From Chloroflexota bacterium (lineage in GTDB: Bacteria; Chloroflexota; Anaerolineae; B4-G1; DUEL01): 58,483 nt of DNA. The stretch lies in assembly GCA_011388675.1 (NCBI GenBank), contig DROW01000204.1, forward strand, positions 1-58,483, written 5' to 3'. This document shows positions 3,182 through 26,144 of this stretch, piece by piece. The notes beneath the pieces are model-generated. The model ran no database searches, was not told the DNA's origin, and was given only the letters and a program-made list of their open reading frames with translations. The translations under genes were made by a program, and so were the position numbers. Numbering within the stretch: position 1 is the stretch's first letter; each line of letters starts with the position of its first letter.

Positions 3182-3196
3182 GATAGGGTTTTTCTA

Positions 3197-3267
3197 CCAC
3201 AGAGACACAGAGGGCACAGAGGACGCTCTATTCTTGAGAAAACTCTGTGTCCTCCGTGTCTCTGTGG
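3197..3267. repeat. palindromic intergenic element, copy 1 (CCACAGAGACACAGAGGGCACAGAG ... CTCTGTGTCCTCCGTGTCTCTGTGG)
   Basis: Two 25-nt arms are reverse complements at 23/25 positions around a ~20-nt loop. It lies between the convergent stops of ade (3181) and the hydantoinase gene (3273). Confidence 0.85.
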
Positions 3268-3272
3268 TTAAG

Positions 3273-4649: not shown

Positions 4650-4887
4650 CGTGCGACCTCCTCTCGTTTTTCGTCCCGGGCTTCCTGCCCTGTGGCGTAC
4701 TCAATGATACACCCGAAAGGCCGTTTTGAGAACCGAAGCACCCGCGCTGACTGTTCAGATCGCCCATCTTGAGGTATACTTATCATTCGCCGTTTCTTTC
4801 CCCAATCGCCTGCACGGGGCTTGCAAGAATCAGCGGGGGAGGAGAACGAACCCGCGTGCTCAGTGTGGACCCGGTTAGGAGGTCATT

Positions 4888-5271
4888 ATGAAGAAGTTGT
4901 TGATCCGGTGGATTATCTCCGCCTTGTCCCTTTTCGTCGCCGCCTGGCTGCTGCCTGGGATCGAGGTAAGCGGTACGGCGTGGGTGGCCTACGCCGTGAT
5001 GGCCGTCGTGTTGGGGTTCGCCAACGCGGTGATCCGCCCCATCCTCAAGTTCCTCACCTGTCCCCTGATCATCCTCACCCTGGGCCTCTTCACCCTGGTC
5101 ATCAACGGAGTGGTGCTGTGGCTTTCCGCCGAACTGTCCACCTGGCTGGCCCACGCGCTGGACCTGGGGGTCGGCTATCACATTCGGGATTTCTGGTCGG
5201 CCCTGTTGGGGGCCATCATCGTCAGTGTTGTCACGGTGATCCTGTCGGCGCTGTTCGTGGATGAGGACTGA
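4888..5271 (+). CDS. DUF360 / holin superfamily-IV-like 4-TM membrane protein
   Basis: MKKLLIRWIISALSLFVAAWLLPGIEV...ANAVIRPILKFLTCPLIILTLGLFTLVINGVVLWL is typical of the family. AGGAGG RBS. Confidence 0.8.
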   Translation: MKKLLIRWIISALSLFVAAWLLPGIEVSGTAWVAYAVMAVVLGFANAVIRPILKFLTCPLIILTLGLFTLVINGVVLWLSAELSTWLAHALDLGVGYHIRDFWSALLGAIIVSVVTVILSALFVDED

Positions 5272-5276
5272 CCCTT

Positions 5277-6644
5277 ATGTCGCAGAGCACGACGACGGCC
5301 CCGGTGGACATCGACGCGGTCCTCGCAGAGGTCCGAGCCGCCCTCGCCGAGGGGGACTGGGAACGGGCGGTCACCCTGATCGAATCGCTCCGTCCGCCGG
5401 ACCAGGCGGACGTCTTTGAGGAACTGCCGCCCGAGGCACAGGACCAGTTGCTGCCCCGCCTCGACCTGGAGGACTCCGCCGACATCCTAGAGGAGTTGGA
5501 GGAGGAGGACGCGGCCGAGGTCGCCGCGCGGCTGAAGGTGGCCGACCTGGCCCGCATCCTGGACGAGATGGAGCCGGACGAGGCGGCCGACCTCCTGGGC
5601 GACATCCCGCCGGAGCGGGCAGCGAAAGCCCTGGCGAAGATGGAGGAGGCGGAGGAGGTCCGCCCCCTCCTGGCCCACGCCGACGACACCGCCGGCGGAT
5701 TGATGACCTCGGCAGAGGTCCTTCTGCACAAGGATATGACCGCCGAGGAAGCCATCGCCTACCTCCGCTCCATCGCCCCGGACACGGAGACGGTCTATTA
5801 CCTTTTCGTCGTGGACGAGGATATGCGGTTGGTGGGCGTGGTCTCCCTGCGCCAGTTGGTGATCGCGCCGCCGGATGCCCGCATCGAGGAGATTATGGAC
5901 CCGGACGTCATCCACGTGCGGGCGGACGCCGATCAGGAGGAAGCGGCCCGGCTGATGAGCCGGTACGACCTCCTGGCCCTGCCCGTCGTGGACGAGGACG
6001 GCCGCCTCCTGGGCCTCATCACCCACGACGACCTGGTCGAAGTGCTGGAAGAGGAGGCGACGGAGGACATCTACCGCCTGGGCGGTGTGCCCGAGGAGCA
6101 GCCGATCGACGTGCCGGTCCCTGCCGCCCTGCGCACGCGGTTGCCCTGGCTGGTGTTGAATCTGGGCACGGCAATGGCCTCCGCCACCGTCCTCAGTGTA
6201 TTTGAGAGCACCATCGCCCGGATAGCCGCCCTGGCCGCTTTCTTCCCCATCGTCGCCGGCGTCAGCGGCAGTGCGGGGACCCAGACCCTTACCGTCATCG
6301 TGCGGGGGCTGGCGTTGGGGGAACTGGATCCCAGGGATGGCCTCCGGGCACTGGCCCGAGAGGTCCTCATCGGCCTGGCCAACGGGCTGGTCGTCGGGGG
6401 CCTCGTCGCTTTGATCGCGGCGGTTTGGAAGGGAACGCCGGCACTGGGGCTCGTCGTCGGGCTTGCGACCCTGCTGAATATGCTGAGCGCGGGCATCGCT
6501 GGCGTGCTGGTTCCCCTGGGGATGCAGATCCTGCGCATAGATCCTGCGCTGGCCTCGCCCATCCTGGTCACGACGATCACCGACACAATGGGGTACCTCA
6601 TTTATCTGGGCCTGGCCACCGCGACCCTGACAAGGTTCTCGTGA
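5277..6644 (+). CDS. mgtE: magnesium transporter MgtE
   Basis: Acidic N-domain, tandem CBS ([34 protein letters not shown]) and a C-terminal 5-TM channel domain. Confidence 0.9.
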
Positions 6645-7777
6645 TGTACCCGCCGTCCTTCACCCTCGTTCGCTCGCAGGAGCAACTGACGACCCTTTTA
6701 GAGCGACTTCTCTCCCGTCCCACCGTCGCCGTGGACACCGAGTCCAATTCTCTCTACGCCTACCACGAGCGGGTCTGTCTGATCCAGTTCTCCACGGAGG
6801 AGGCCGACTTCATCGTGGACCCTCTGGCGGGAATCGACCTGAGCCCGCTGGGGGACCTGTTCGCGAACCCGACCATCCAGAAGGTCTTCCACGCCGCCGA
6901 GCAGGACGTCGCCAACCTGAAGCGGGACTTCGGCTTCCGCTTCGCCAACCTGTTCGACACGATGTGGGCCGCCCGCATCCTGGGCTGGCCGCGGGTCGGC
7001 CTGGCGGACGTCCTGGAGGAGACGTTCGGCGTGCACACCGACAAGCGGTATCAGCGGTACAACTGGGGCAAGCGCCCTCTCCCACCGGAGGCTCTGAGGT
7101 ACGCCAGCCGGGACACCCATTACCTGCTGCCGCTGCGGGACCTGCAGGCAGAGGCGCTGGAGAGGAGCGGGCGGATGGAGGAGGCGGGGGAGGTGTTCGC
7201 TCAGTTGGCCGAGACGGGGCCTGCCTCCAATCCGTTCGGCCCGTCCGCTTTCTGGCGGCTCAAGGGATTGGACGACCTCCCACCGCGGGAGCGCGCCGTC
7301 CTCTACGAGTTGTTCCTCTGGCGGGACCGGGAGGCCGCCCGGCGGGACGTGCCTCCCTTCCGGGTGATGGGGGAGCGAACGATGCGAATCCTGGCCCACC
7401 TCCGGCCGCACACCCTCGACGATCTCTCGCGCGTGCGCGCGCTGCGTCCGAAAACCCTGCACCGCTACGGGGAGGCCATCCTGGAGGCCATCGCCCGTGG
7501 GGAGCGAAGGCCCCCCCCGGAGCCCCCGCCCTCCCCGCCGCCGCCTGCCGAACCGGTCCTGCAACGATACCACGCCCTCCGCGCCTGGCGGCGGGAGGTC
7601 GCTGCCCGGCGAGGGGTGGAGAACGACGTCGTGCTGCCCAACGCGGTGCTGTGGGCCCTGGCGGAGCGCAATCCGACCTCGCTGGGCGAACTGGCGGACG
7701 TCCCGGGCCTCGGCCCGTGGAAGCGCAAGACCTACGGCCCGGCGATCCTGGAAGTTCTCGCAACCAGCGATCGATAA
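6644..7777 (+). CDS. rnd: ribonuclease D (DEDD 3'-5' exonuclease + HRDC)
   Basis: [33 protein letters not shown] and two HRDC-like segments. ATG 6644 overlaps the mgtE TGA; the track ORF 6425.. is an upstream extension. Confidence 0.8.
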
Positions 7778-7809
7778 CCAGCAACCGGTTTTCAGGGGGG
7801 ACATTCGTC

Positions 7810-8599
7810 GTGAAGATCAAGTTCCTGGGCGCAACCCAGACCGTTACCGGCTCTCAGCATCTGATCTCGGTCAACGGGAGCCGGATCCTCCTGGAGTGCG
7901 GGCTTTTCCAGGGGCGGCGGAGGGAGAGTTATGAGCGGAACCGCCGCCGTCGGCCGCACGCAGGAGATCGTCTACGCGCTACACCGGCTCCACCTAGCCG
8001 GTCAGATCCCCGACGTGCCCATCTTCGTGGACAGCCCTCTGGCGGTGGACGTGACCGAGATCTTCCGCCTCCACCCCGAGTGTTACGACGAGGACCTGCA
8101 GGACTTCATCGCCCGGGACCGACATCCCGACCCCTTCGGCTTCGACCGGCTGCGGTACATCCGGAACGTGGAGGATTCCAAAGCGCTCAACGATCTGGAG
8201 GGGCCGGCGGTGATCATCAGCGCGTCCGGGATGTGCGAGCACGGCCGGGTCCTCCACCACCTCAAGCACACCCTCTGGAGCCCCCGCAACGCGGTGCTGA
8301 TTGTGGGGTGGCAAGCCCCCAACACCCTGGGTCGCCGGTTGGTGGAGGGTCACAAGAGCGTGCGCGTCCTCGGCGAGGAGGTCCCGGTGCGGGCGCGGGT
8401 GGAGGTGATCAACGGCTACTCCGCCCACGCCGACCGGGCCGCCCTCCTGGCCTGGGCCCGGCCCATCCTGCGCCGCTTGCAACGGGTCTTCGTCGTCCAC
8501 GGCGATCCGAAGCCGGCCGCCGCCCTGGCTGAGGGGCTGCGGGAGGCCGGGGCGAAGTGGGTGGCGATCCCCGCCGAGGGCGACTCTTTCGAAATGTAG
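7810..8599 (+). pseudogene. beta-CASP / metallo-beta-lactamase RNase with internal deletion and frameshift
   Basis: GTG 7810 gives [44 protein letters not shown], a typical beta-CASP N-terminus; that frame then turns R/P-rich. A different frame (ATG 7931) carries [14 protein letters not shown]...[11 protein letters not shown]...VVHGD. The HxHxDH MBL core expected between them is missing. Confidence 0.6.
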
Positions 8600-8615
8600 C
8601 GCAGAGGAGGTGAGA

Positions 8616-9161
8616 ATGCCCACGATGAATCTCTGGAAGGAACTCCCGCCGGGGCCGGACGTGCCTCGGGTCATCTACGTGGTGGTCGAGATCCCCAAGC
8701 GATCGCGGAACAAGTACGAGTACGACGAACAGGGCGGTTTTATCAAATTGGACCGCGTCCTCTACTCCTCACTCCACTATCCAGGCGACTACGGCTTCAT
8801 CCCCCGCACCCTCCACGACGACGGCGACCCGCTGGACGTGCTGGTGATGACCAACGAACCGACCTTCGCCGGGTGCGTCATCGAGGCCCGGCCGTTGGGG
8901 ATCTTCCACCTGGAGGACAAGGGGAAGTTGGACGACAAGATCCTCGCCGTCCCCCACACCGACCCCCTGTTCGACGATTTCCACACCCTGAAAGACGTGC
9001 CCGCCCACTTCCTGGAGGAGGTGACCCACTTCTTCAGCGTGTACAAGGACCTGGAACAGGCGGAGACGAAACCTCGAGGATGGGAAGGAGTGAAGCGGGC
9101 CTACGAGGAGATCGAGCGGGCGATCGAGATGTACGTCCGCCTGCTGCGGACGGAGAGATAG
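8616..9161 (+). CDS. ppa: inorganic pyrophosphatase (family I)
   Basis: EIPKRSRNKYEYD, YPGDYGFIPRT and DGDPLDVLV. GAGGAGG lies 6 nt before ATG 8616; the track start at 8610 is a GTG. Confidence 0.9.
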   Translation: MPTMNLWKELPPGPDVPRVIYVVVEIPKRSRNKYEYDEQGGFIKLDRVLYSSLHYPGDYGFIPRTLHDDGDPLDVLVMTNEPTFAGCVIEARPLGIFHLEDKGKLDDKILAVPHTDPLFDDFHTLKDVPAHFLEEVTHFFSVYKDLEQAETKPRGWEGVKRAYEEIERAIEMYVRLLRTER

Positions 9162-9189
9162 GGTAACGGTCACCCACAAAAAGAAAACA

Positions 9190-9243
9190 CCACAGAGACA
9201 CGGGGAGCACAGAGGAATCTCTGTGCCCCCCGTGCCTCCGCGG
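9190..9243. repeat. palindromic intergenic element, copy 2 (short loop, degenerate right arm)
   Basis: CCACAGAGACACGGGGAGCACAGAG-gaat-CTCTGTGCCCCCCGTGCCTCCGCGG, between the convergent stops of ppa (9161) and the cohesin gene (9294). Confidence 0.7.
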
Positions 9244-9293
9244 TGAAACCGTGGAAGTCCTGTCCCCCCAAAGGCGACCGTCACCAGACCGCG

Positions 9294-10745
9294 CTAGGGG
9301 ATGCACAGCACCTGCCCGGCGAGGATGTAGTGCAGGTTGTAGATGCGGTTGGCCTCGGCGATGGCCCACATACTCACCCCGTACCGCAGAGAGATGCGGA
9401 AGAGGTTCTCCCCCCACTGGACCGTGTGGTAATAACGACAGGTGGGCGTCGGCCCCCAGCCGAACTGGGGCACAGCCGTCGGGCCGGGCGGGACGGGGAC
9501 CCAGGGCACGTTGGGGATCGCCAGAACCGATCCAGCGTAAATGAGATTGGGGTTGACGATGCCGTTGCAGAGGGCAATGGCATCGGGGCGGACGGAGTAG
9601 GCGCGGCCGATGGCGTACAGGGTCTCTCCCCACCGAACCACGTGGTGCCCCAGGATATCCGTACATTCCCCACCAGGCTGCGGCGTCGGCGTCGGCGTCT
9701 CCGTCGGCGTCTCCGTCGCTCCGACGACCTGGATGGTCGCGCCCTGGGTGGCAACCTCCAGCGGCCCCCCGTTGGGATCGGATAGCAATGCGTCACCGAT
9801 CTCCACCGAGTACGTGCCGGGCTCGCGCCCAACGAACGTGAACGTGATCAGGTCGCACGCGCCCTCGAAGGGGGAACTGGGGGCCTGGAGGCTCGCCGCG
9901 TACCCCACCCCCTGATCCTCCGGTGAGGGACCCACGAGGACGTCGGCGATACACCCCTGCCCCTCGTAGCCGACCCAATCAAGGCCGGCCCCGTAGGTGA
10001 TGTGGACCTCCACCCCGTACAGGTTAGATGCGTTGGCGACGTGAAGCGTCACCCTTGCCAGGTCCCCCAGAGCCACCGAGGAGGACGAGGGAAGCAGGGA
10101 GAGGACCGCACCCGTGGCGGGAGTTTGCGTCGGCGTGGGCGTCGCGGTGGGGGACGGCGTCACGGTAGGAGACGGTGTCGCGGTAGGCGTCGGTGTCTCC
10201 GTGGGTGTCGGCGTCTCCCCAACCTGCACCGTCACCTGCCCGTTCTCCGTCTCGACGGGGATCTGGCTGCCGATCGCGTCGGCGAGGAGGACCTGGGTGA
10301 AGGTGAGCGGAGAGACACCGGCGGCTTTCGCCCGGAAGGTGATCGTCGCCACCACGCCGCTCCCACTGACCGGTGCGTGGTTCATCTGAGCGTAGCCAAA
10401 GTCGATATGCCCCGTCCCCTGGTCGACCTCGTTCTTGGGGACGTAATCGGGGCTGGCGAACGGCCCGAGCGCTACCTGTATCCCGGCCATTCCGGCATCG
10501 GCGTCCACCACCTCCAGCACCGAGGGGTCGAACACCAGATGCACCTCGACCCCCTGAAGGTTAGAGACGTTCTCCACCACGATCTCCACGGCGACGGTCT
10601 CCCCTTCCCCAATCGTCGCCGCCGTCGGGTTGAGGTAGACCCGCGCTCCCCCGCCCTGAGCGGAGACCGGCACCGCGAGGATCAGCAGGAGCAGTACGAC
10701 GGGCAGACACAGGCCGCGGAGGATCGGCATTTCCCTCCTTCTCAT
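9294..10745 (-). CDS. secreted scaffoldin-like protein: signal peptide, cohesin, PT linker, cohesin, PT linker, 2x LysM
   Basis: MRRREMPILRGLCLPVVLLLLILAVPVSAQ signal. Two cohesin-like modules (GETVAVEIVVENVSNLQGVEVHLVFDPSVLEVVD..; LARVTLHVANASNLYGVEVHITY..). TPTPTETPTPT linkers. Two LysM (HVVRWGETLYAIGRAY..; HTVQWGENLFRISLRYGV..). The upstream part of track ORF 9294..10874 is rejected. Confidence 0.8.
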   Translation of the reverse strand: MRRREMPILRGLCLPVVLLLLILAVPVSAQGGGARVYLNPTAATIGEGETVAVEIVVENVSNLQGVEVHLVFDPSVLEVVDADAGMAGIQVALGPFASPDYVPKNEVDQGTGHIDFGYAQMNHAPVSGSGVVATITFRAKAAGVSPLTFTQVLLADAIGSQIPVETENGQVTVQVGETPTPTETPTPTATPSPTVTPSPTATPTPTQTPATGAVLSLLPSSSSVALGDLARVTLHVANASNLYGVEVHITYGAGLDWVGYEGQGCIADVLVGPSPEDQGVGYAASLQAPSSPFEGACDLITFTFVGREPGTYSVEIGDALLSDPNGGPLEVATQGATIQVVGATETPTETPTPTPQPGGECTDILGHHVVRWGETLYAIGRAYSVRPDAIALCNGIVNPNLIYAGSVLAIPNVPWVPVPPGPTAVPQFGWGPTPTCRYYHTVQWGENLFRISLRYGVSMWAIAEANRIYNLHYILAGQVLCIP

Positions 10746-10779
10746 TGTACACCTCCCCAATGGTTGACTCGACGAAGAT

Positions 10780-11397
10780 CTAGAATACGCGCTTCCTGGG
10801 CCACGCGACCAGCCCCATCCCCAGCGCGCCCAAGAGCAGCGCGCCAGCGGGGTTGCAGGAGTGGAGCGGTGCACTTTCTACCACTATGGCGACCCGGCCG
10901 GCTGCCACTTCGGCCGGGATCGGGGCCCCGTTGGGGTCGGCCAGAAGGACGTCCTGCAGGACCAGCGTCCCTTCCCCCTGCCCCCTGGCCCGCAGCGTGA
11001 TCGACGCCAGCGGGCCGTTCCCGCTGGCTGGCTCGTGCGGCGGCATCCTCGCCACAGCGTAATCGATGCGCCCCGCGTCCAGATCGACCTGGTTTTGGGC
11101 GACGAAGTCGGCCGGGAGGAACCCGCCGTGGGCGATCTGAACCCCTTCCGTCTCCGGGTCGGCATCGACCACCTCCAGCAGGTCGGCGTCGTACTCCAGG
11201 TGGACCTCCGCCCCGGCCAGGTCGGTTACCCCTTCTATCCGAATGGTCACCTCCGCCGTCTCCCCAGGCTGGAGCGTGAGCACGTCCGGCTCCAGTCGAA
11301 CGACCGTCCCGCCCGCGGCAAACGCGGTGACCAGCGGGACGACGAGCAGAATCACTACCCCCAGGACGAAACCGGTTCTCAAGGACAATTGGTACAT
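10780..11397 (-). CDS. secreted single-cohesin protein with C-terminal hydrophobic anchor/sorting-like tail
   Basis: Signal peptide, cohesin-like module (GETAEVTIRIEGVTDLAGAEVHLEYDADLLEVVD) and the tail ..HSCNPAGALLLGALGMGLVAWPRKRVF. Confidence 0.75.
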   Translation of the reverse strand: MYQLSLRTGFVLGVVILLVVPLVTAFAAGGTVVRLEPDVLTLQPGETAEVTIRIEGVTDLAGAEVHLEYDADLLEVVDADPETEGVQIAHGGFLPADFVAQNQVDLDAGRIDYAVARMPPHEPASGNGPLASITLRARGQGEGTLVLQDVLLADPNGAPIPAEVAAGRVAIVVESAPLHSCNPAGALLLGALGMGLVAWPRKRVF

Positions 11398-12464
11398 AGG
11401 CCGAAGTTCTCCGCTGTCATCGTGAGATCGAAGATATTCACCCGGCAGTCGCCGTTGACATCCGAGGCCGGCGCAATCGAACCCAGCGCGTTCCCGCCGG
11501 GGCAGGGGGTGAAGGGGACGAAACAGGACTCATCGACGCTCTCCCCGAAGTCGCTGATGATACGCACGATGTCGAAGATGTTGATGCACCCATCGCCGTT
11601 CACGTCTCCCCCCTCCAGCGTGTGCCATCCGACGTTCACCGTCGTCTCGTCCAGCGGCTCCCAGTAGCACTCGCTCCCGTAGTTGGGAAAATCCAGCCGG
11701 ATGTAGGCCCATTCGTAGGGGCCAGGAGGGGGCGGATCGGCCGGAAGGGGGAGACCGGCCGGGGGAAGCGCCCCTTCCGCTGGTACCTCCAGATAGAAGT
11801 TCCCCGCCTCGTCGGTGCAGGTACGCGCCCAGGCAACGGGGTAGGGGCCGGAGGTGGGGTAGAAGAGGACCGTGACCGCCGTGCGACCGTAGTGGGTGGT
11901 CCCCTCCCGCGTGATCCATCCCTTCAGTCCGGTCGTCGTCGGCGGCACACGGATCGCCCCGCCTTCCGCATCCCCCACCGTCAGCGGCGTCCCGTCGGGA
12001 TCGAACAGATGGACCGAGGCAGGTTCGAAGGCGATCGGGTAGGTGCCCGGCGCGGCTCCGTCCCGCACGCGGAAGGTCACGGCGGCGAGAACCCCGTCCC
12101 CCGCGAAAGGACCGGCATCCGGCGCACGCTGGGCCACCCAGCGGACGGTGCCCTCCTCGGCGCGGTTCTCCGGGGTGCAACCGCCAGCGAAGACGGGACC
12201 GACCTCCAACTGCACCCCGTCACGCCCCGGATCGCTGTCCAGGGGCTCCAGCACCTCGTCCGGGTACGTGGCGACGAACTCCACGCGATCCAGCCCGACC
12301 GCCCCCTCCACCCGGATCTCGAACCGAACCGTATCCCCGGGACGTGCCGTGACGAGGCCGGGGGCGAAGTAGATGTCGGCGGTGGGAGACGTCGGAGGGA
12401 GGGACGGGGCGAGGTAGGAGAGCACCCAGAGGACGAGAGCCCCCCACAGAAGTGTCCCGCGCAT
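11379..12464 (-). CDS. secreted cohesin - Ig/CarboxypepD_reg-like - dockerin protein
   Basis: Signal peptide and cohesin-like module (GDTVRFEIRVEGAVGLDRVEFVATYPDEVLEPLD). Type-I dockerin duplicated Ca loops GDVNGDGCINIFDIVRIISDFG and SDVNGDCRVNIFDLTMTAENFG. Confidence 0.8.
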   Translation of the reverse strand: MRGTLLWGALVLWVLSYLAPSLPPTSPTADIYFAPGLVTARPGDTVRFEIRVEGAVGLDRVEFVATYPDEVLEPLDSDPGRDGVQLEVGPVFAGGCTPENRAEEGTVRWVAQRAPDAGPFAGDGVLAAVTFRVRDGAAPGTYPIAFEPASVHLFDPDGTPLTVGDAEGGAIRVPPTTTGLKGWITREGTTHYGRTAVTVLFYPTSGPYPVAWARTCTDEAGNFYLEVPAEGALPPAGLPLPADPPPPGPYEWAYIRLDFPNYGSECYWEPLDETTVNVGWHTLEGGDVNGDGCINIFDIVRIISDFGESVDESCFVPFTPCPGGNALGSIAPASDVNGDCRVNIFDLTMTAENFGLCTNCP

Positions 12465-12506
12465 CGTCTTCTCCCCCCCGGCGATCCCGTGTGGTCCGGT
12501 CGGCCC

Positions 12507-13577
12507 CTACGGCGCCCAGGTCGTCGGTCCGCAGCGGTCAAAGTTCCCCGCCGCCAGCGTCAGGTCCAGGATGTTAATGGTGCCGTCGTCGTTGATGTCT
12601 TCCGGATCGCTGGTCGGCAGGCCACTCATACCGAACTTGCCAATGATGGAGACGATGTCGAGGATGTTGACGCAGTTGTCGTTGTTCGTATCCCCGCCCC
12701 ACAGGGTCGTGGTCCCGATGTCCACCGTCGCCCCGACCACGTAGACGGAGGACTTCTGGGCGTCGAGATAGCCGTTGTAGGAAGCCTGGACGGTGTAGGT
12801 GCCGCCCAGGGGAACCGAGAGGCTGAAGGAGCCGTCGGCAGCGGTGGTGGTGGCGGCGATGACGCCGTTGCCGGTGGAGAGGGCGACGACGTCCACGTTG
12901 GCGTGGTCGGTCATCGTGCCCTGTCGCTGAACGACCCCCTGGATGATCCCGGCGTCGATGACGTTGATCGTCGGTACGGAGACGCTGTTGATGGGGATGG
13001 GCTGGCCGTTGGCGTCGGAGAGGACGGTGCCCGGGGGGTCCCCGGTGCCGACCAGGGCCACGCCGATCCCCGTTGAGCCGGTCGCCAGCCCGGCCCAGGT
13101 GATGGTGGCCACCGATCCGGTCCGGTTCGTCACCCCGCCGGAGCCGCCAGTGTGGCTAACGGCGATGTGGATGCAGGCGGAGGTATCGCACTCGGTCGGA
13201 TGGGGGATCGAGGGGGCAGAATAGAAGACTTCGTTGGCTCCGACGACGAGGCTCCCGTCGAAGAAGCCGTAGGTGATCTCCACCTGGGTGCCGTTGGCCG
13301 GGTTGTCGTCGTAGTCGTCCACATCCACCACGGTGGCGTCGAAGGGGATCCACAGTTCGACCCCCATCACGCCCACCTCGGGGGTGGCGTTGTTGGTCAC
13401 CGAGATCACCACGTCGGTCGTAAAGGTGGAACCGACGACCGGCGCGCCGGAGACGATGTCGGTGATGATGACCGATGTGTACGTGTTCGGTCCATCGGCC
13501 TGGACCGGCGCGCTCGAAAGGGGGACCCACAGGAACATCAGAGCCAGCGCAAGCCCCGCCCGGAAACCTTTGCCCAT
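12507..13577 (-). CDS. secreted cohesin-like - CarboxypepD_reg-like - dockerin protein
   Basis: Start at MGKGFRAGLALALMFLWVPLSSAPVQA (ATG 13577, GAAGGAGG RBS). VMGVELWIPFDATVVDVDD cohesin-like region, DGSFSLSVPLGGTYTVQASYNGY beta-sandwich, and dockerin repeats GDTNNDNCVNILDIVSIIGKFG and EDINDDGTINILDLTLAAGNFD. Confidence 0.75.
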   Translation of the reverse strand: MGKGFRAGLALALMFLWVPLSSAPVQADGPNTYTSVIITDIVSGAPVVGSTFTTDVVISVTNNATPEVGVMGVELWIPFDATVVDVDDYDDNPANGTQVEITYGFFDGSLVVGANEVFYSAPSIPHPTECDTSACIHIAVSHTGGSGGVTNRTGSVATITWAGLATGSTGIGVALVGTGDPPGTVLSDANGQPIPINSVSVPTINVIDAGIIQGVVQRQGTMTDHANVDVVALSTGNGVIAATTTAADGSFSLSVPLGGTYTVQASYNGYLDAQKSSVYVVGATVDIGTTTLWGGDTNNDNCVNILDIVSIIGKFGMSGLPTSDPEDINDDGTINILDLTLAAGNFDRCGPTTWAP

Positions 13578-13648
13578 CTCGCACCTCCTTCGGAATCGTG
13601 GCAGAAAACCGAGCCCGCAAGCGGCATTGGAAACCCCGCGTCGCTTCC

Positions 13649-13764: not shown

Positions 13765-14994
13765 CTACAGGTCCGCCGCCTGGCGCAGGATCTGCTCGAT
13801 CCGTTGTGCCGCGGCCTGTAGCGAATAGCGCTCCTGCACGGCCCGATAGCCAGCCTCCCCCATCCTCGCCAGACGTTCCGGCTGCTCCTTCAGTTGCCGC
13901 AGGGCATCCGCCAGCGCCGCAGGGTTCTCCGGCTCCACGAAGACCCCTGCCCCGACCTGCTCCAGCAAGTGGCGCGCCTCCCCGTCCACCGTGATGAGGG
14001 TGGGCGTGCGGCAGGCCCAGGCGTCGAACATCTTGGTGGGGAGCGCACCCCGGAAGAGGTCCAGACGGCGCAAGGGAACCAGCGCCACGTCGGCCATCGA
14101 GAGATAGGGGGCCATCCGCTCCAGCGGTTGTCCGGGCAGTAGGCGCAGATTGTCCAGGCTGTACTGCTCCTTCAGCGCCAGCAGGGCCGCTTTGCGCGGC
14201 CCCTCCCCCACGAAGAGGAACTGGATGTCCGGGTCGTCTCTCAGCAGGCGGGCCGCCTCGACGACTGTCTCCAGGCCCTGGGCAATGCCGTGGATGCCGC
14301 CGTACAGGACCACGAACCGCCCCTCCAGCCCCAGTTGGGCCCGCAGGCGCGCACCTTCCTCCGGTGCCGGGCGGAAGATGGCTGTGTTGGAGCCGTTTGG
14401 GACCAGCGCCAGTTTACTCTCCGCCACGCCGCGCGCCCGCAGCCGGTCGTAGATGCCACGGGTCACGGCGATCACCCGTCGCGCCCGGTGGTAGCAGCGC
14501 ATCTCGAACCACTCGGCGAGGCGGATAAAATACGGGTTCCTGAGTTCCCCCAGCACCACCGCCGACTCCGGCCACAGGTCCTGCACCTCCATCACGAAGG
14601 GAACTCGCCGCACCGTGCTGACGACCCAACCGGCGATGGCGACGAACAGGGGAGGGGAGTTGGCAAAGATGGCGTCTACCTTTCCCCTCACCAGCAAGCC
14701 GGCGACGATGGCACCCAGCATATAACTGAGGTAAAAGGCCATGCGCGTCCGAAAGGTCTTCACCGGCGACGTTTTGACCCATAGGTGCAACACATCCACG
14801 CCATCGCGGGTCTCGCGCACCCACAGTTTACGCCGGTAGCCAGGCTGCACGATCCCCGAGGGATGGTTCGGGACTTCGGTCAGCACGGTGACACGGTGCC
14901 CCGCCTCCGCCAGCGTTCGGGCGACGGTCATCGCCCGCACCTGCACCGCGCCCGCCTCCGGGGGGAAGTATTGGCTCAGATGCAGGATCCTCAT
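13765..14994 (-). CDS. GT4-family glycosyltransferase (WbuB-like)
   Basis: MRILHLSQYFPPEAGAVQVRAMTVARTLAEAGHRVTVLT... with GT-B architecture. ATG 14994 overlaps the wecB TGA (ATGA). Confidence 0.8.
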   Translation of the reverse strand: MRILHLSQYFPPEAGAVQVRAMTVARTLAEAGHRVTVLTEVPNHPSGIVQPGYRRKLWVRETRDGVDVLHLWVKTSPVKTFRTRMAFYLSYMLGAIVAGLLVRGKVDAIFANSPPLFVAIAGWVVSTVRRVPFVMEVQDLWPESAVVLGELRNPYFIRLAEWFEMRCYHRARRVIAVTRGIYDRLRARGVAESKLALVPNGSNTAIFRPAPEEGARLRAQLGLEGRFVVLYGGIHGIAQGLETVVEAARLLRDDPDIQFLFVGEGPRKAALLALKEQYSLDNLRLLPGQPLERMAPYLSMADVALVPLRRLDLFRGALPTKMFDAWACRTPTLITVDGEARHLLEQVGAGVFVEPENPAALADALRQLKEQPERLARMGEAGYRAVQERYSLQAAAQRIEQILRQAADL

Positions 14995-16049
14995 ACGCGG
15001 GCCTCCAGGATGCGGACAATGGCCTGGCTGGTCTTGCCATCGCCGTAGAGGGGAGGGTGATCCTCCGGAGGGCGGAAGGTCCGCACCGCCTCGACGATCC
15101 GATCCGTGTGTGCGCCGACCAGTTTGTTCCATCCCACCTCGACCGTCTCCACCCACTCGGTCTGCTCGCGCAGGGTGATGCAAGGCGTACCCAGGCAGTA
15201 GGCCTCCTTCTGGATGCCACCGGAGTCGGTGAGGATGAGACGGGCGTGTTTCTCCAGCACCAGCATATCGAAGTAACTCTGCGGCTCGACCACCCGCACA
15301 TACGGCGTCGGACGCCAGCCCACTTCGTTCAGGCGGTTGCGGGTACGCGGGTGGACAGGGAAGAGAACCGGCTCGCGCAACCGATTGACGGCCTCCAGAA
15401 TGGCCTCCAGGTTCTCACGAATATCGGTGTTCTCGGCGCGGTGGATGGTCAGGAGAAGATAGCCCTCCGGCGATAACCCTAACCGCGTCAAGACGTCCGA
15501 CTGCGCTTCGGCCAGTGGCAGGTTGTACAGGATGGCCTCGTACATCACGTCCCCTACCAGGTGTACCCCCTCGGTAATCCCCTCTGCGGCCAGATTCTCG
15601 ACGGCGGTGGAAGTGGGGCAGAAGAGGAGGTCGGAGACGTGGTCGACGACCACGCGGTTGATCTCTTCCGGCATCCAGCGGTTGAAACTCCGCAGGCCGG
15701 CCTCGATGTGCCCGACAGGGATGTGCAGTTTCGCCGCAGCCAGCGCGCCCGCCAGCGTAGAGTTGGTGTCCCCACGGACCAGCACCCAGTCCGGTTTTTC
15801 TTTTAGCATCACCTCTTCCAACCGTGCCAGCATCTGACCGGTCTGCCAGCCGTGCGGCCCGGAGCCGACTCCCAGGTTGTAATCGGGCGGAGGCAGCCCC
15901 AGTTGCTCGAAGAAGACGGCCGACATCTCATAATCGTAGTGCTGGCCGGTATGGACGAGTACCTCGCGGTGGCGAGGGCGGAGCGCCCGACTGACGGGGG
16001 CAGCCTGGATGAATTCCGGCCGCGTTCCGACGATAGAGACAATCTTCAT
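14991..16049 (-). CDS. wecB: UDP-N-acetylglucosamine 2-epimerase (non-hydrolysing)
   Basis: MKIVSIVGTRPEFIQAAPV...HTGQHYDYEMS...GDTNSTLAGALAAAKLHIPVGHIEAGLRS...HPRT. Confidence 0.9.
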   Translation of the reverse strand: MKIVSIVGTRPEFIQAAPVSRALRPRHREVLVHTGQHYDYEMSAVFFEQLGLPPPDYNLGVGSGPHGWQTGQMLARLEEVMLKEKPDWVLVRGDTNSTLAGALAAAKLHIPVGHIEAGLRSFNRWMPEEINRVVVDHVSDLLFCPTSTAVENLAAEGITEGVHLVGDVMYEAILYNLPLAEAQSDVLTRLGLSPEGYLLLTIHRAENTDIRENLEAILEAVNRLREPVLFPVHPRTRNRLNEVGWRPTPYVRVVEPQSYFDMLVLEKHARLILTDSGGIQKEAYCLGTPCITLREQTEWVETVEVGWNKLVGAHTDRIVEAVRTFRPPEDHPPLYGDGKTSQAIVRILEARV

Positions 16050-16115
16050 TAGGACCTCGCTTTCGGGCAGGATTGGCAACCCGCGAGACGAAAGCCTCCC
16101 AGTGTTCCCAGGAGG

Positions 16116-16144
16116 ACTTTACCAAAACTCATGTCGTTCGTCAA
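16116..16144 (-). promoter_or_regulatory. sigma70-like promoter for wecB-GT4 (TTGACG-17-TAAAGT with TGg)
   Basis: The minus strand reads CTTGACGAACGACATGAGTTTTGGTAAAGT. It lies ~60 nt upstream of ATG 16049. Confidence 0.45.
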
Positions 16145-16351
16145 GCCCCTGTAGGTGGGGGGTTTCGAAGTGGAAGGCAAGAGACCGGCACTTTCAGCCT
16201 CCTCAGGGGCAATCGCGGGGCGAGGTTCGGACAAGAATACAGACACCCCGATCCGTCCTGCCACACACCGGCAGGGGCTGACGGGGAACCGGTCCGGCAT
16301 CGGCGCTTCGGGCCGCTGCCCCCTCGGAGGAGGATTCGGCCGTCGGTGGGT

Positions 16352-17317
16352 TCAGATCGGCGGCAGGACCCCTACCGCCTGCAGCACACGCCGTCCTGAT
16401 TGCAGAATGAGATACTTCCCCGCCAGTGCGGCATACCTTGCCCGCTCGGACGGGGACATCGGGCCCAGATCAGCCAGGCCGTAGCCCAACTCGACCAACA
16501 ACGGCCCCGCCACACGCTGTACCAGCCTGAGATCGGCGGGGGACATCTCCCGCCGCCAGCGGCCGACCCGGCCGGGATTCGGCGGCTGGCGGACCGGGTC
16601 GTGGAAGTCGCCGGGCCGGATGCGCTTCCGGGCCAGGCGATGGTGCTGGGCCATCTCGGGCAGGTACGGCTCGTTCAGGAACGCGCAGATGGCCCGCAGT
16701 TCCTTCTCCGGATCCAGCACCAGGTCCTCGTAGCGCAGTTCGTGGTAGAGGCGCGGCCCCAGCCGCGCCCCGGCCGCGCGGGCCTGTCGGATGCGGCGGA
16801 CCCAGGTACGGGCGGCGAAGTAAACGTCTATATGGAATTCCCTCCGCCCCCACTTCTCCAACATCGAAAGCGCCACATCCCGCCCGTCCCGAATGATGTG
16901 GATGAACTGGGCCTCGGGAAATATCCGGTGGATCAGATCGACGTAACTGGTATAGATCGGTGTCTTATCCCCCCACCGCACAGCCCCATACTGGCGCGCG
17001 TACATCCGGTAGAGGGTTTCCAGGAACCCCGCCGGCGTTGGGGCTGGCATCTCGTGGAAGAAACGAGCGGGGTCCGGTGGCTCCCCCTGCCACTCCTTCA
17101 CGAATCGGTAGCGGGTGAAGATGATGTGCAGGATCTTCCGCACACGCGATTCGTTCAGCGGAGCGAGGGGGGCGCGACCAAAGAAGCGGGGGATGAAATC
17201 GGACTCGGGGGGGATGTAGATACGGGGGCTGCTGCTGAGCATGTAGCGCAGCAGGGTCGTCCCCGAGCGGTGAACACCGATGATGAAGATGGGATTGCTC
17301 GAACCGGTCTCTCTCAC
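16352..17317 (-). CDS. PAPS-dependent sulfotransferase family protein
   Basis: FIIGVHRSGTTLL (5'-PSB) and IIRDGRDVALSM (3'-PB). GTG 17317 overlaps the upstream TGA (GTGA). The longer track ORF to 17608 is rejected. Confidence 0.75.
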   Translation of the reverse strand: MRETGSSNPIFIIGVHRSGTTLLRYMLSSSPRIYIPPESDFIPRFFGRAPLAPLNESRVRKILHIIFTRYRFVKEWQGEPPDPARFFHEMPAPTPAGFLETLYRMYARQYGAVRWGDKTPIYTSYVDLIHRIFPEAQFIHIIRDGRDVALSMLEKWGRREFHIDVYFAARTWVRRIRQARAAGARLGPRLYHELRYEDLVLDPEKELRAICAFLNEPYLPEMAQHHRLARKRIRPGDFHDPVRQPPNPGRVGRWRREMSPADLRLVQRVAGPLLVELGYGLADLGPMSPSERARYAALAGKYLILQSGRRVLQAVGVLPPI

Positions 17318-18333
17318 GGCCCTTCCTCTTCCAGGGGATATCCGAGAGCACGGATCAGATCCCCGAGAATTTCCTGAACCTGCCGCTTCTCCTCTGGATT
17401 GAACTCCCGCTTCCATCGCCCGCTGTGGGAACGGGAGAGATCGATCTGGAGCATCCTCTCGTGGAAGGGGATTTCCGCGAACAGACAGATCTCCTGGAGG
17501 ACCTCCTTCGGCTCCCGCACGAACCGCTCCAGGCTGACCTCGTAGAGGCTGTGCGGTGGAAGGGAGGAGCGGATCTCGAACCAGCGGCTCATCATCGACC
17601 GGTACCACAGGGCCCCCTGAACCTTGTCACGCGGGCTCCATCGCTGTCGACTGAAGGAAGCGACAACGTCTCTCGGATCGCGGTAGATGTGAACGATGCG
17701 AGCCTGGGGGAGGATCTCCAGGATCTCCCGGGCCAAGAGGACGTTCCACGTGTTGTCCTCCACAAAAAACGCTTTCCCCGTCTCTTTGAGGAGATCCCCT
17801 ATGACATTGTGGATGAATTTCCTCAAAATAGGAGCCAACTCCTCTCTGGAGCGAGGAGGGGAATGGTAGATGCGGGGGTGGAGGGTGTATCCCTCCGTGC
17901 CCACCCAGCAGGCGGGGAAGGAGAACGCGATGAGTTCGGACATCAGGGTATCGACGTGATGCTCAAACCGGGGCAGATGGCGATTCAACTCCCACCCGTG
18001 GTAGGCCCTTGGTGAGAGGAGGCGTCCTCTGGGGTCGAACCATTGAATCAGGCGGCCGGCGAGGCGGTGATACCACGGCTCTCGGGCAAGGGTCCTCAGA
18101 AACCGCTCCAGCCGCTTCAGGCGACGGTCCGCGATGTAAGGGGACCAGACGGCGGTGAAGCCGGCGTAGAAATCGACGATGCCGTCGGGGTCGATGATGA
18201 AACGATACTCGAAGGGAAGGCTGGCGGCTTGTGGGTGAAGGGCCAACGTCTCCTTCAAAATGCTTGTCCCGCTCCGTCCCGTTCCTCCCACCAGAATGAT
18301 CTTCACCATCGTCCCCCCTATGGAATCACCCAT
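17314..18333 (-). CDS. PAPS-dependent sulfotransferase family protein
   Basis: ILVGGTGRSGTSIL and IYRDPRDVVASF. The start is ATG 18333 or 18309 (MVKIILVGG). Confidence 0.75.
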   Translation of the reverse strand: MGDSIGGTMVKIILVGGTGRSGTSILKETLALHPQAASLPFEYRFIIDPDGIVDFYAGFTAVWSPYIADRRLKRLERFLRTLAREPWYHRLAGRLIQWFDPRGRLLSPRAYHGWELNRHLPRFEHHVDTLMSELIAFSFPACWVGTEGYTLHPRIYHSPPRSREELAPILRKFIHNVIGDLLKETGKAFFVEDNTWNVLLAREILEILPQARIVHIYRDPRDVVASFSRQRWSPRDKVQGALWYRSMMSRWFEIRSSLPPHSLYEVSLERFVREPKEVLQEICLFAEIPFHERMLQIDLSRSHSGRWKREFNPEEKRQVQEILGDLIRALGYPLEEEGP

Positions 18334-18959
18334 CGGACCACGTGGAACGCCTCCGCGTAGTCCACTCCTGCCTGGGCGCCCCGCACGCGGGCGAGGCCCC
18401 GGATCAGGTCCTCACGCCAGTACTTCCGGTGCCGCTGCGAACGGTAGTGGCGGAGCGCTCTCAATTTCTCCTCAAGATGGCGCTCCTCCAGGTGGACGAA
18501 AGCGGAGGCGGTGAAGGTGAGGTTGTTCCAGGGGAGTTCGTATCCCAGAATGCTGACATGCTTGAAGGCCCGTATCCCCTCCTGGCACACGATCTGGTGA
18601 TCCTGGTGCACGTCCGTAGGGGCGGGAAGGAGAACCAGAGACGGCTGCAATTCCCTCCGTATTTGTACCAGATACTCCAGGATTTCCTGTCGGTACTGAG
18701 GGAAGTGGCGGACGGGATAGCGAAGGATCGTCAGATGGTCGATAGGAATGTTGAGGGAACCACAGGCCGCCCGCAACTCGGTGACCAGGATGTCGCGGGG
18801 GAAGCCTTCCGGCACCGATTCCTCACAAATGGAGAAGGCGACGTAATAAACCTCTGCCCCCCTCTCGATAAGTTTGACCAGGGTTCCTCCGCATCCCAGT
18901 TCCCCGTCGTCCGGATGGGCCGCCAAGACGAGGACGCGCTCGTTGTGCATTTTCATCAT
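18318..18959 (-). CDS. PIG-L/LmbE-family N-acetylglucosaminyl deacetylase
   Basis: VLVLAAHPDDGELGCGG and TDVHQDHQ. The start overlaps the upstream GT4 stop (ATGA). Confidence 0.8.
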   Translation of the reverse strand: MMKMHNERVLVLAAHPDDGELGCGGTLVKLIERGAEVYYVAFSICEESVPEGFPRDILVTELRAACGSLNIPIDHLTILRYPVRHFPQYRQEILEYLVQIRRELQPSLVLLPAPTDVHQDHQIVCQEGIRAFKHVSILGYELPWNNLTFTASAFVHLEERHLEEKLRALRHYRSQRHRKYWREDLIRGLARVRGAQAGVDYAEAFHVVRWVIP

Positions 18960-20077: not shown

Positions 20078-20095
20078 GTGGACACTCCCGTTCCG

Positions 20096-22668: not shown

Positions 22669-22674
22669 ACCGCC

Positions 22675-25441: not shown

Positions 25442-25460
25442 AGCCCACCTTCTCCAAACC

Positions 25461-26123: not shown

Positions 26124-26144
26124 AGTGGTATACCCTTTCAGGTT

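Follow-up and report, generated by a model that had tools for sequence, protein, structure and literature searches.

The closest known system to the locus analyzed here is the C-terminus of CipA from C. thermocellum, a CohI9-X-DocII segment bound to SdbA, OlpB or Orf2p (PDB 2B59, 3KCP and 4FL4). The same order of cohesin, X-module and dockerin is found in protein D of our locus and, more loosely, in protein C, and this segment is the best structural match; the C. thermocellum type II anchoring cohesins, including that of SdbA, are closest to the cohesins of proteins A and B. The logic is apparently shared as well, in that the X-dockerin of an adaptor would plug into a cell-bound cohesin. There are, however, several differences. 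The anchors of our locus are LysM domains and a transmembrane (TM) helix rather than SLH domains, its adaptors carry one cohesin instead of nine and no CBM, and its dockerins contain conserved cysteines, unlike that of CipA. A profile alignment shows one more shared trait, hydrophobic residues at dockerin positions 10–11 (NILD/NIFD, compared with NLLD in CipA DocII). Sequence identity to the solved cellulosomal proteins is only 15–25%. Whereas C. thermocellum is a cellulolytic Firmicute, the host is a member of the Chloroflexota from hydrothermal vents, and no dockerin-bearing CAZymes were found for the Anaerolineae cassette, either in the window (the whole stretch of 58,483 nucleotides that was analyzed) or among the 25 X-dockerin proteins scanned.

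A second comparison is offered by Ruminococcus flavefaciens ScaE, a small single-cohesin cell-bound anchor whose partners, ScaB, CttA and a cysteine peptidase, include a scaffoldin as well as non-cellulase proteins and dock through X-dockerin dyads. The anchorage of ScaE is covalent, through sortase, as opposed to the LysM or TM helix of our locus, and ScaE is part of a very large fibre-degrading cellulosome. The peptidase uses its X-dockerin dyad to bind the surface-anchoring cohesin of ScaE, and in C. thermocellum the double dockerin of an S8 protease targets the cell-bound scaffoldin ScaD and not the enzyme scaffold (PMC12484212). The latter is a precedent for a dockerin-anchored subtilase; one related locus (L009) encodes an S8 protease with cohesin, X-module and dockerin (S8-Coh-X-Doc) beside the cassette. 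The C. thermocellum enzyme, however, belongs to a true cellulosome producer and has a tandem dockerin without a cohesin, whereas the Anaerolineae protease has its own cohesin.

Cohesin and dockerin modules outside cellulose degradation are likewise found in Archaeoglobus fulgidus (2XDH) and in the GH84C cohesin of Clostridium perfringens, and some A. fulgidus proteins unite both module types in a single polypeptide. These cases are isolated proteins or toxin/glycosidase complexes, unlike the cassette. We know of no clade-wide conserved operon with dedicated wall and membrane anchors and X-dockerin adaptors among such non-cellulosomal systems.

Organization and modules of the four-gene locus

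The ORF list of the window placed four consecutive genes at 9294–13577, as the initial annotation had proposed; these genes and all features below lie on the minus strand. The co-oriented genes D, C, B and A are predicted to form one operon. Shine-Dalgarno sequences precede D, C and A, and that of D, at the operon head (13578..13600), is a strong ribosome-binding site (GAAGGAGG) with a 6 nt spacer before the ATG. The start of B overlaps the end of C by 19 nt, an overlap that is conserved across relatives, and a terminator scan identified a strong intrinsic terminator 3' of A (9193..9240), with a stem of 20 bp and a T-rich tail. The source is a hydrothermal-vent member of the Anaerolineae. Beside the locus, the window has a glycan island whose GC content is below that of its surroundings.

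Gene A (9294..10745; 483 aa) encodes a signal peptide (residues 1–29), a cohesin, a PT linker, a second cohesin, a second PT linker and two LysM domains, a pattern supported by Pfam and an alignment of 12 orthologs. A single-sequence Pfam search gave a Cohesin score of 54 bits, and nearly all of 361 homologs, from Chloroflexota, combine cohesin with LysM. Cohesin 1 (residues 34–176; 10218..10646) is type II-like, with PDB profile matches to the ScaB type II cohesins (3L8Q, 1.2e-12) and SdbA (2B59_A, 1.8e-5). Cohesin 2 (residues 214–342; 9720..10106) is divergent, has two invariant cysteines and gave weak Pfam and PDB matches; hhalign related it to cohesin 1 with a probability of 99.8% (E = 2.7e-28). 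It is an optional module, missing from most deep-clade orthologs. The peptidoglycan-binding region (9297..9656) comprises LysM 1 (about residues 364–412) and LysM 2 (residues 440–483), identified by Pfam as two stretches with 86.7 bits; the mean pairwise identity of LysM 2 is 0.80.

Gene B (10780..11397; 205 aa) encodes a signal peptide (residues 1–27), a type II-like cohesin (residues 29–175; Pfam Cohesin 33 bits as a single sequence) and a C-terminal TM helix (about residues 184–199; 10801–10848) which, with its basic tail, is conserved in 13 orthologs. PDB profile matches of the cohesin were to type II cohesins (3L8Q, 6.6e-8; 5G5D_A, 2.8e-5), and its closest paralog by pairwise BLAST is A cohesin 1, at 45% identity. 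The locus therefore has two kinds of anchor, as had been claimed: LysM in A for the wall and a TM helix in B for the membrane.

Gene D (12507..13577; 356 aa) encodes a signal peptide (residues 1–27), a cohesin, an X-module and a dockerin, and is the best-conserved member of the cassette (62–92% identity across loci). Its AF2 model (pLDDT 86.8) had as top Foldseek matches the CipA CohI9-X-DocII structures 4FL4_C and 3KCP_A (E about 1e-17). The cohesin (residues 29–208; 12954..13493) is divergent, with insertions; Foldseek aligned it to cohesins with TM scores of 0.52–0.67, the 3KCP_A profile alignment begins at residue 150, and BLAST against A cohesin 1 gave E = 2e-7. The X-module (residues 209–292; 12702..12953) has an Ig-like/CarboxypepD_reg fold (Pfam CarboxypepD_reg, 36.7 bits) and aligns with the X module of the CipA XDoc dyad (2B59_B) in a profile search. 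The dockerin (residues 293–356; 12510..12701) has a pair of F-hand loops, DTNNDNCVNILD and DINDDGTINILD; a cysteine lies in loop 1 and another in the RCGP at the C-terminus. Its Ca-ligand positions are conserved in 40–44 of 44 homologs. As a single sequence it scored 16.2 bits against Pfam Dockerin_1, under the 22.9 cutoff. The C-terminal half of D nevertheless resembled the CipA X-module and type II dockerin in the PDB profile search (2B59_B, 5.7e-13; 3KCP_A, 6.8e-12), and XDoc dyads superpose on the D model with TM scores of 0.73–0.76 (2.5–3.4 Å).

Gene C (11379..12464; 361 aa) encodes an N-terminal signal/anchor helix, a type I-like cohesin, a middle beta domain and a Cys-rich dockerin. Both Cohesin (28.6 bits) and Dockerin_1 (29.1 bits) were over the Pfam threshold, and the AF2 model (pLDDT 74.6) matched 3KCP_A in Foldseek (E = 6.7e-13). 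The cohesin (residues 28–183; 11916..12383; pLDDT above 92) superposes on type I cohesins (TM 0.79–0.82, 2.3–2.7 Å) and on A. fulgidus 2XDH (TM 0.81), and its PDB profile match was 2VN5_A (E = 9e-7). The C. perfringens GH84C cohesin construct 2W1N was among the fold matches of both D and C. The middle domain (residues 184–282; 11619..11915) has two invariant cysteines and beta strands modeled at a pLDDT of about 80–86; Pfam called no domain in it, but the HMM of the D X-module matches it weakly (E = 5e-5), and it is probably an X-module equivalent. In the dockerin (residues 283–361; 11382..11618) the loops DVNGDGCINIFD and DVNGDCRVNIFD are set apart by a long Cys-containing linker, with six invariant cysteines in all in the homolog alignment. 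This assignment is based solely on sequence because AF2 confidence in the region was low (pLDDT 30–49). C has 29 homologs, and every taxon named as a source belongs to the Anaerolineae/Anaerolineales.

The generic Ca-loop pattern D.[DN].[DN]...[DN]..[DE] has exactly four matches in the whole six-frame translation of the window, all of them the dockerin loops of C and D, which indicates that the dockerin calls are not due to chance. The Ca-coordinating positions, and also the hydrophobic residues at loop positions 10–11 and in the following helix, are invariant or nearly so in 24 C-family and 44 D-family sequences. Together, Pfam, PDB profiles, AF2/Foldseek and hhalign upheld the modules first assigned to the four proteins, including a plug and a socket in each of C and D; the modules missed by Pfam (the cohesin and dockerin of D and cohesin 2 of A) were confirmed by profile, fold or hhalign comparison. 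No CBM or SLH domain was identified by Pfam in any of the four. Pfam, hhalign and family HMMs gave a locus total of five cohesins and two dockerins; beyond these the HMMs detected neither module type anywhere in the 58-kb window nor, in agreement with the initial annotation, any dockerin-bearing enzyme or cargo. The five cohesins have diverged strongly from one another (26–45% identity by pairwise BLAST).

Conservation of the cassette and dockerin-tagged proteins in relatives

The order D-C-B-A was kept in every sufficiently long related locus from Anaerolineae/Thermoflexia MAGs, and 22 contigs of identical size appear in both the D and A match lists. Two more distant relatives (L018 and L019) retain only D and the cohesin-LysM gene, which identifies D and A as the evolutionary core. 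Two others (L016 and L020) still have B and A but only a decayed C, a gene that some lineages can dispense with. A glycan cluster had been reported beside the locus. It is present in the window but is not conserved, its position in relatives being occupied by NYN/CoA-transferase genes, and in the near clade the cassette is surrounded by conserved genes of a housekeeping kind (pyrophosphatase, beta-CASP RNase, RNase D and MgtE) rather than by CAZyme clusters.

A recurrent arrangement is that of an anchor-cohesin gene immediately after an X-dockerin gene, seen as C then B in the window and as D then A in the loci that have only two genes. It was also found in L021 (DUF11-Coh-X-Doc, then signal peptide-cohesin-TM) and L022 (Coh-X-Doc proteins, then signal peptide-cohesin-PT linker-TM). 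The latter, a cargo-type locus, also encodes beta-helix (Pel9A-like) proteins and gave faint GH43/GH130-like signals. In L009 the cassette is adjoined by the subtilase (Peptidase_S8) mentioned above and by a peptidoglycan amidase, Amidase_2-Doc. Elsewhere, D-type XDoc tags occur on Peptidase_C11 (clostripain), beta-helix, LamG/FG-GAP, LRR, CAP and long stalk proteins, one tagged protein being attributed to Ca. Promineifilaceae. No confident glycoside-hydrolase domain was found in the 25 X-dockerin proteins scanned.

A proposed docking platform on the envelope and its alternatives

Based on these data, the explanation we favor, with moderate confidence, is that the operon encodes a cohesin-dockerin docking platform of the cell envelope that is not cellulosomal. 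A would be bound to peptidoglycan through its two LysM domains and present, on PT linkers, a type II-like cohesin and a divergent second one, while B would sit in the membrane by its C-terminal helix and present a cohesin closely related to A cohesin 1. D and C would be secreted adaptors with the architecture seen at the cell-anchoring end of primary scaffoldins in cellulosomes. We propose that the X-dockerin of D binds cohesin 1 of A in a Ca2+-dependent manner, as the ancestral core, and that the C dockerin binds the B cohesin, the translationally coupled C-B pair being nested inside D and A. The free cohesins of D and C and A cohesin 2 may then recruit X-dockerin-tagged secreted proteins encoded elsewhere in the genome, for which proteases, wall hydrolases and adhesin- or stalk-like proteins are better candidates than cellulases. 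Distance-matrix correlations, which are confounded by shared phylogeny, mildly favored the C-dockerin/B-cohesin pair (r = 0.82) and did not single out D-dockerin/A-cohesin (r = 0.63).

The initial annotation had suggested a candidate self-assembling scaffold without enzymes, with D and C chaining or branching on the anchors A and B. In the closed form of this reading A–D bind only each other, with D and C chained head-to-tail or branched, and the product would be a protein surface layer, a fibre, part of a sheath or a connection between cells in these filamentous bacteria, free of enzyme cargo. Modules, anchors and the plug and socket of C and D survive from that interpretation, but a closed scaffold does not fit the module count: two dockerins cannot saturate five cohesins, and three or more sockets remain for partners from outside the locus. 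Unless a dockerin type can pair with more than one cohesin, some sockets would have no plug, and the strong divergence of the cohesins suggests several specificities. The lack of cargo in the window, the lack in D and C of domains beyond cohesin, X and dockerin, and the minimal loci of D and A only are all consistent with a closed scaffold. So is the high mean pairwise identity across cassettes of the D cohesin (0.70) and dockerin (0.80), both far more conserved than the anchor cohesins, as expected of a self-interface; this conservation fits D self-binding or another conserved partner equally as well as D-A binding. However, proteases, an amidase and adhesin-like proteins of relatives, some adjoining the cassette, share the X-dockerin tag, which makes a display platform likelier than a purely structural scaffold, and we consider the closed scaffold unlikely.

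It is quite improbable that the modules do not pair at all and that the operon encodes four independent wall- or membrane-associated proteins, with F-hands that stabilize by binding Ca or that bind carbohydrate or other ligands, and cohesin folds that are generic beta-sandwich spacers. Many dockerin-like and cohesin-like modules without an obvious partner occur, and the sub-threshold Pfam score of the D dockerin and the atypical long Cys-rich linker and low AF2 confidence of the C dockerin would be in keeping with such a role. Against this, a single operon retains both kinds of module throughout the class, the X-dockerin of D and cohesin 1 of A match the two partner chains of the same solved complex (2B59_B and 2B59_A), the X-dockerin/anchor-cohesin gene order recurs in unrelated loci, and the Ca loops, together with the hydrophobic residues at positions 10–11 and in the helix after them, are invariant or nearly so. 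The reading of these genes as the anchoring end of an ordinary cellulosome, with plant-polysaccharide-degrading enzymes and a CBM-bearing scaffoldin elsewhere in the genome, is hardly credible, as the cellulosomal origin of all the nearest solved structures and the Pel9A-like proteins and faint GH43/GH130-like signals of L022 are set against four proteins without CBM or SLH domains, the absence of confident glycoside-hydrolase domains in the X-dockerin proteins scanned (0/25), the protease and peptidoglycan amidase beside the L009 cassette, the housekeeping rather than CAZyme surroundings of the near-clade cassette, and a hydrothermal-vent Anaerolineae source.

As a docking platform, the cassette is probably a small, enzyme-free counterpart of the plug-and-socket anchoring of cellulosomes that displays other secreted proteins. 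Cohesin-dockerin anchoring with LysM and TM anchors, conserved across the Anaerolineae, would probably provide these bacteria with a platform for such proteins.

Layout and module content of the cassette

The initial annotation placed four co-oriented open reading frames on the minus strand, and all of them were present exactly where it had put them: gene A at 9294-10745 (483 aa), gene B at 10780-11397 (205 aa), gene C at 11379-12464 (361 aa) and gene D at 12507-13577 (356 aa), with the operon reading D-C-B-A. The sequence GAAGGAGG precedes the ATG of gene D and, besides this gene, Shine-Dalgarno sequences are present for genes C and A; gene B is without one. The start of gene B lies 19 nt inside gene C, an overlap that is kept in relatives and thus indicates translational coupling of C and B, and a terminator with a 20-bp stem lies 3' of gene A. 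In a vent metagenome, independent Logan contigs cover C-D into the upstream glycosyltransferase gene and others cover A-C, which indicates that the gene arrangement is no assembly chimera. The cassette was found in hydrothermal-vent metagenomes; no RNA run searched for gene D contained it.

An 806-nt joint inside gene A, seen in sequencing runs X2 and X3, was treated as an assembly-graph artefact, its flanks being 21 nt long and within PT-linker-coding repeats. Several contig joints land in these repeats, which differ between samples in both PT-linker coding regions of gene A (9684-9720 and 10134-10189), and in run X3 6 nt are deleted at 9696. This variation is consistent with either linker length polymorphism or assembly-graph tangles.

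When the four proteins were compared with Pfam, the modules named in the initial annotation were borne out for A cohesin 1, the cohesins of B and C, the LysM domains of A and the dockerin of C, but the dockerin of D was below threshold and its cohesin was not called. Matches to the cohesin profile (PF00963, cutoff 24.1 bits) scored 54 bits for A cohesin 1, 33 bits for B and 28.6 bits for C. Searched with the window protein only, Pfam gave no cohesin call for the second module of gene A or the N-terminal domain of gene D, and an NCBIfam scan of proteins A-D added nothing specific. Because Pfam alone failed on the window protein, the second module of A (residues 214-342) was resolved only by profile-profile comparison, as a diverged cohesin (hhalign against A cohesin 1: 99.8%, E=2.7e-28). 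The D cohesin matched A cohesin 1 by BLAST (E=2e-7), and in the AF2 model the N-terminal domain of D superposed on solved cohesins by Foldseek with TM scores of 0.52-0.67. The C cohesin was modelled with a pLDDT above 92 and superposed with TM scores of 0.79-0.82 on type I cohesins (2.3-2.7 A) and on the Archaeoglobus non-cellulosomal cohesin. The predicted models of both C and D thus superpose on solved cohesins, the fold of which is a nine-stranded beta-sandwich (jelly-roll). In total the locus has five cohesins and two dockerins, and family-specific HMMs found cohesin, X, dockerin and LysM modules of the 58-kb window confined to genes A-D.

A cohesin 1 and the B cohesin share 45% identity, and PDB profile searches with both ranked type II anchoring or adaptor cohesins first (ScaB 3L8Q, SdbA 2B59_A and 5G5D_A). 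These type II-like sequences are carried by proteins predicted to be anchored to the cell, by LysM in one case and by a TM helix in the other. Gene A encodes a signal peptide and two LysM domains (86.7 bits, PF01476) that are invariant across orthologs. The C-terminus of B, a TM helix and basic tail, is kept in 13 orthologs. A Cys sorting signal of the MYXO-CTERM/CGP-CTERM kind was considered for this region and rejected, as the Cys occurs only in the near clade of closer relatives and is Trp in the deep clade of more distant ones; NCBIfam, including its CTERM-sorting models, gave no match to it. Judged by its sequence, the B C-terminus has nothing beyond a TM helix and a basic tail.

For the dockerins, which are duplicated F-hands, we looked for two 12-residue Ca-binding loops of the form D-x-[DN]-x-[DN]-x-x-x-[DN]-x-x-[DE] with a helix after either loop. 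A generic Ca-loop pattern had exactly four matches in the six-frame translation of the 58-kb window, two in C and two in D, and the ligand positions of all four loops are invariant or nearly so. In the AF2 models helices follow the loops at residues 305-313 and 336-344 of D and at 297-304 and 344-352 of C, where the dockerin has a pLDDT of 30-49, too low for the model to support it. Pfam Dockerin_1 (PF00404, cutoff 22.9 bits) scored 29.1 bits for C and 16.2 bits for D, such that by single-sequence Pfam D appears as CarboxypepD_reg with a Dockerin_1 below threshold. A profile built from 44 D homologs matched the X-module and type II dockerin dyad of the C. thermocellum scaffoldin CipA (2B59_B, E=5.7e-13) and, starting at D residue 150, the CipA CohI9-X-DocII fragment 3KCP_A. 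The AF2 model of D (pLDDT 86.8, pTM 0.72) had full-length CipA CohI9-X-DocII as its top Foldseek matches (4FL4_C and 3KCP_A, E about 1e-17), and its dyad, with an Ig-like X module packed N-terminal of the dockerin, superposes on five solved XDoc structures (TM 0.73-0.76, 2.5-3.4 A). Together, the profile and model matches identify D as cohesin, X-module and dockerin. The X-dockerin assignment of C is a tentative one: its middle beta domain has moderate AF2 confidence and matches the X module weakly (E=5e-5), and its dockerin is supported at the sequence level by the above-threshold Pfam match, two canonical loops and six invariant cysteines.

These six cysteines lie in the C dockerin at 11382-11618, and the D dockerin (12510-12701) has two conserved ones, in loop 1 (36 of 44 homologs) and in a C-terminal RCGP motif. 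Their conservation suggests disulfide clasps. We know of no description of such clasps in cellulosomal dockerins, and they may go with a thermophilic, extracytoplasmic environment.

Conservation and genomic surroundings

Among 185,579 species genomes, the scan with C gave 14 loci, all of them in MAGs; 13 are titled as Anaerolineae, Anaerolineales or Thermoflexia and one as an unclassified bacterium. The D-C-B-A order is kept in all loci of sufficient length. Conservation is by far the highest for D, with 62-92% identity across loci versus 42-73% for C, and by module the mean pairwise identity was 0.80 for the D dockerin, 0.70 for the D cohesin, 0.57 for A cohesin 1, 0.55 for the B cohesin and 0.48 for the C cohesin. 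The families also differ in size: C has 29 homolog clusters, for which all taxa named by the sources are Anaerolineae/Anaerolineales, and the D family is much larger, at least 140 clusters. The A family has 361 matches, the best 120 of which are nearly all Cohesin+LysM; the only name given to its homologs by the sources is "LysM repeat protein", and all source-named taxa are Chloroflexota.

The match lists of D and A have 22 same-sized contigs in common, which implies that the two genes are on the same contigs. At two loci (L018 and L019) D, at 54-59% identity, forms a two-gene locus with a cohesin-LysM gene alone, and at two others (L016 and L020) C is reduced to a remnant and D, B and A are still present. 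The two-gene loci, the decay of C and the co-occurrence of D and A make D+A the core. A has a single cohesin in most deep-clade loci, and no case of C without B was found among the loci. The D-[C-B]-A order looks like a C-B pair nested within an ancestral D-A pair. Directly upstream of D in L020, an Anaerolineae-type MAG, there are several Flagellin_arch-type/FlaF-like genes and response regulators (1395-5263, minus strand), which may represent a bacterial archaellum-like cluster.

Upstream of the cassette lies a polysaccharide-synthesis island (13765-29000, minus strand) that encodes four GT4 glycosyltransferases, three sulfotransferases, a PIG-L deacetylase, two methyltransferases, a Wzx-type flippase, a UDP-GlcNAc 2-epimerase, a UDP-glucose dehydrogenase and a DUF7033 protein. 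The adjacency of cassette and glycan cluster pointed out in the initial annotation holds for the window but is not conserved, as near-clade relatives carry NYN_YacP and CoA-transferase genes, which were not found in the window, at the position of the island; the adjacency is thus specific to the source genome. The GC content of the island is also below that of the surrounding DNA, reaching 0.62 and, at 24-26 kb, 0.486. On these two grounds we rejected a functional link to the glycan cluster as a conserved feature of the cassette; the island composition points to horizontal acquisition of a sulfated-glycan locus. Between 26000 and 36000 there is a strongly negative GC skew, of -0.10 to -0.15 over about 26-34 kb, with the cumulative curve running steadily down.

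The genes 3' of the cassette, for a pyrophosphatase, a beta-CASP RNase, RNase D and MgtE, are the same in near-clade relatives. The beta-CASP/RMMBL ribonuclease gene (7810-8596, plus strand) has an apparent internal deletion, keeping residues 1-45 (7810-7944, frame 1) and 240-465 (7919-8596, frame 2) of its 466-aa ortholog in L001. Contigs of runs X1 and X3 are joined differently here, at 7872/7933 and 7997/8206. The deletion may reflect a pseudogene, strain variation or misassembly at this spot.

Candidate cargo in related genomes

Scans of the 58-kb window with family HMMs and the Ca-loop pattern found no third dockerin, in agreement with the earlier view that no glycoside hydrolase or other catalytic protein in it bears one. 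In a related Anaerolineales MAG (L009), three extra dockerin genes adjoin the cassette at 3899-9384 on the minus strand: a 769-aa Peptidase_S8 (I9 propeptide)-cohesin-X-dockerin protein, a 566-aa Amidase_2-dockerin protein and a 344-aa cohesin-dockerin protein.

A search of 1.84 billion proteins with the D-type X-dockerin profile gave 58 representatives below 1e-30, and the domain scan covered 25 matches that were not D-like. The domains on these proteins were Peptidase_C11, beta-helix/NosD, LamG+FG-GAP, InlB-type repeats, DUF11, LRR, CAP, SH3 and long CarboxypepD_reg/SdrD stalks; a glycoside-hydrolase domain was found on none of the 25. Cohesin and X-dockerin occur together in seven, usually as a terminal cohesin-X-dockerin triad, and the named source of one protein is Ca. 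Promineifilaceae. In L021 and L022 a small signal peptide-cohesin-(PT linker)-TM gene, of the same architecture as B, lies directly 3' of X-dockerin genes, an order that matches C-then-B in the window and D-then-A in the two-gene loci. Around the cohesin/X-dockerin cluster of L021 (GCA_964389925.1; 3690-6551 and 15015-20745) there are CHAT-TPR, 1308-aa Peptidase_S8-VWA and astacin-ricin lectin proteins, making this neighbourhood a protease-rich secretome setting.

A proposed docking platform and its alternatives

We lean towards the locus encoding a docking platform. A would be the wall anchor and B the membrane anchor, each presenting a type II-like cohesin at the presumed cell surface. The X-dockerin of D would dock on A and the dockerin of C on B, both probably in a calcium-dependent manner, and the cohesins left over (those of D and C, and A cohesin 2) would recruit X-dockerin-tagged exoproteins encoded elsewhere. 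The D-A pairing is proposed because the two genes co-occur throughout the family and because the D XDoc and the A cohesin each resemble one chain of the solved complex 2B59. The C-B pairing is proposed because the two are translationally coupled, C never occurs without B and the same gene order recurs in unrelated loci. A mirror-tree and rate comparison meant to assign the dockerin-cohesin pairs mostly picked up correlation within proteins and the shared phylogeny.

The unusual conservation of both plug and socket in D would also fit a closed structural scaffold or polymer, which we consider rather unlikely. More improbable still is that the modules do not pair with one another. That the locus is a fragment of an ordinary cellulosome is hardly credible, since no CBM family (E<=1), SLH or LPXTG was matched in A-D, the anchors being LysM and a TM helix, dockerin-bearing CAZymes were found neither in the window nor among the 25 scanned X-dockerin proteins, and the L009 cassette has a protease and an amidase as its neighbouring cargo. 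The locus thus lacks the system-level attributes of a cellulosome that were looked for and has the modules, namely cohesin, dockerin, XDoc (in D) and LysM.

The proposed docking platform resembles the cellulosomal anchoring tier in which type II cohesins hold X-dockerins (CipA to SdbA/OlpB). It is also like ScaE of R. flavefaciens, a cellulosomal anchoring cohesin that also takes the X-dockerin of a peptidase (review PMC12484212). Literature searches on cohesins and dockerins with Chloroflexi, LysM or non-cellulosomal roles turned up no account of the operon. We would class it as a cohesin-X-dockerin docking system that is conserved in Anaerolineae, anchored by LysM and TM and not cellulosomal.

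Cohesin-dockerin pairs have been catalogued in all three domains of life, and their non-cellulosomal role has long been an open question. Outside cellulosomes, the locus is a small and conserved case that can be tested directly, with a minimal testable core of two genes, D (Coh-X-Doc) and A (Coh-LysM), and C and B as an optional second pair. The partner predictions are clear, with natural LysM and TM anchors and candidate cargo that is not carbohydrate-active. If they were confirmed, attachment by type II cohesins and X-dockerins would be ancient and general to bacterial envelopes rather than peculiar to cellulosomes, and there would be a way into the poorly known surface biology of the Anaerolineae, abundant filamentous bacteria of vents, sediments and digesters. 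As parts derived from a thermophile with built-in disulfides, the LysM-cohesin/X-dockerin pairs would be useful and orthogonal for surface display and designer scaffolds.

A bolder and rather doubtful extension is that D+A form the core of a Chloroflexota-wide, non-covalent system for sorting proteins to the envelope. The X-dockerin dyad would then be an address tag of general use, doing the job of LPXTG, SLH or PEP-CTERM signals, and would be borne by many unrelated exoproteins, from proteases and amidases to LRR/beta-helix adhesins and giant stalk proteins, with LysM- and TM-anchored type II-like cohesins as receptors. D would be the universal adaptor and may polymerise head-to-tail (dockerin to cohesin), pushing the display layer outward.
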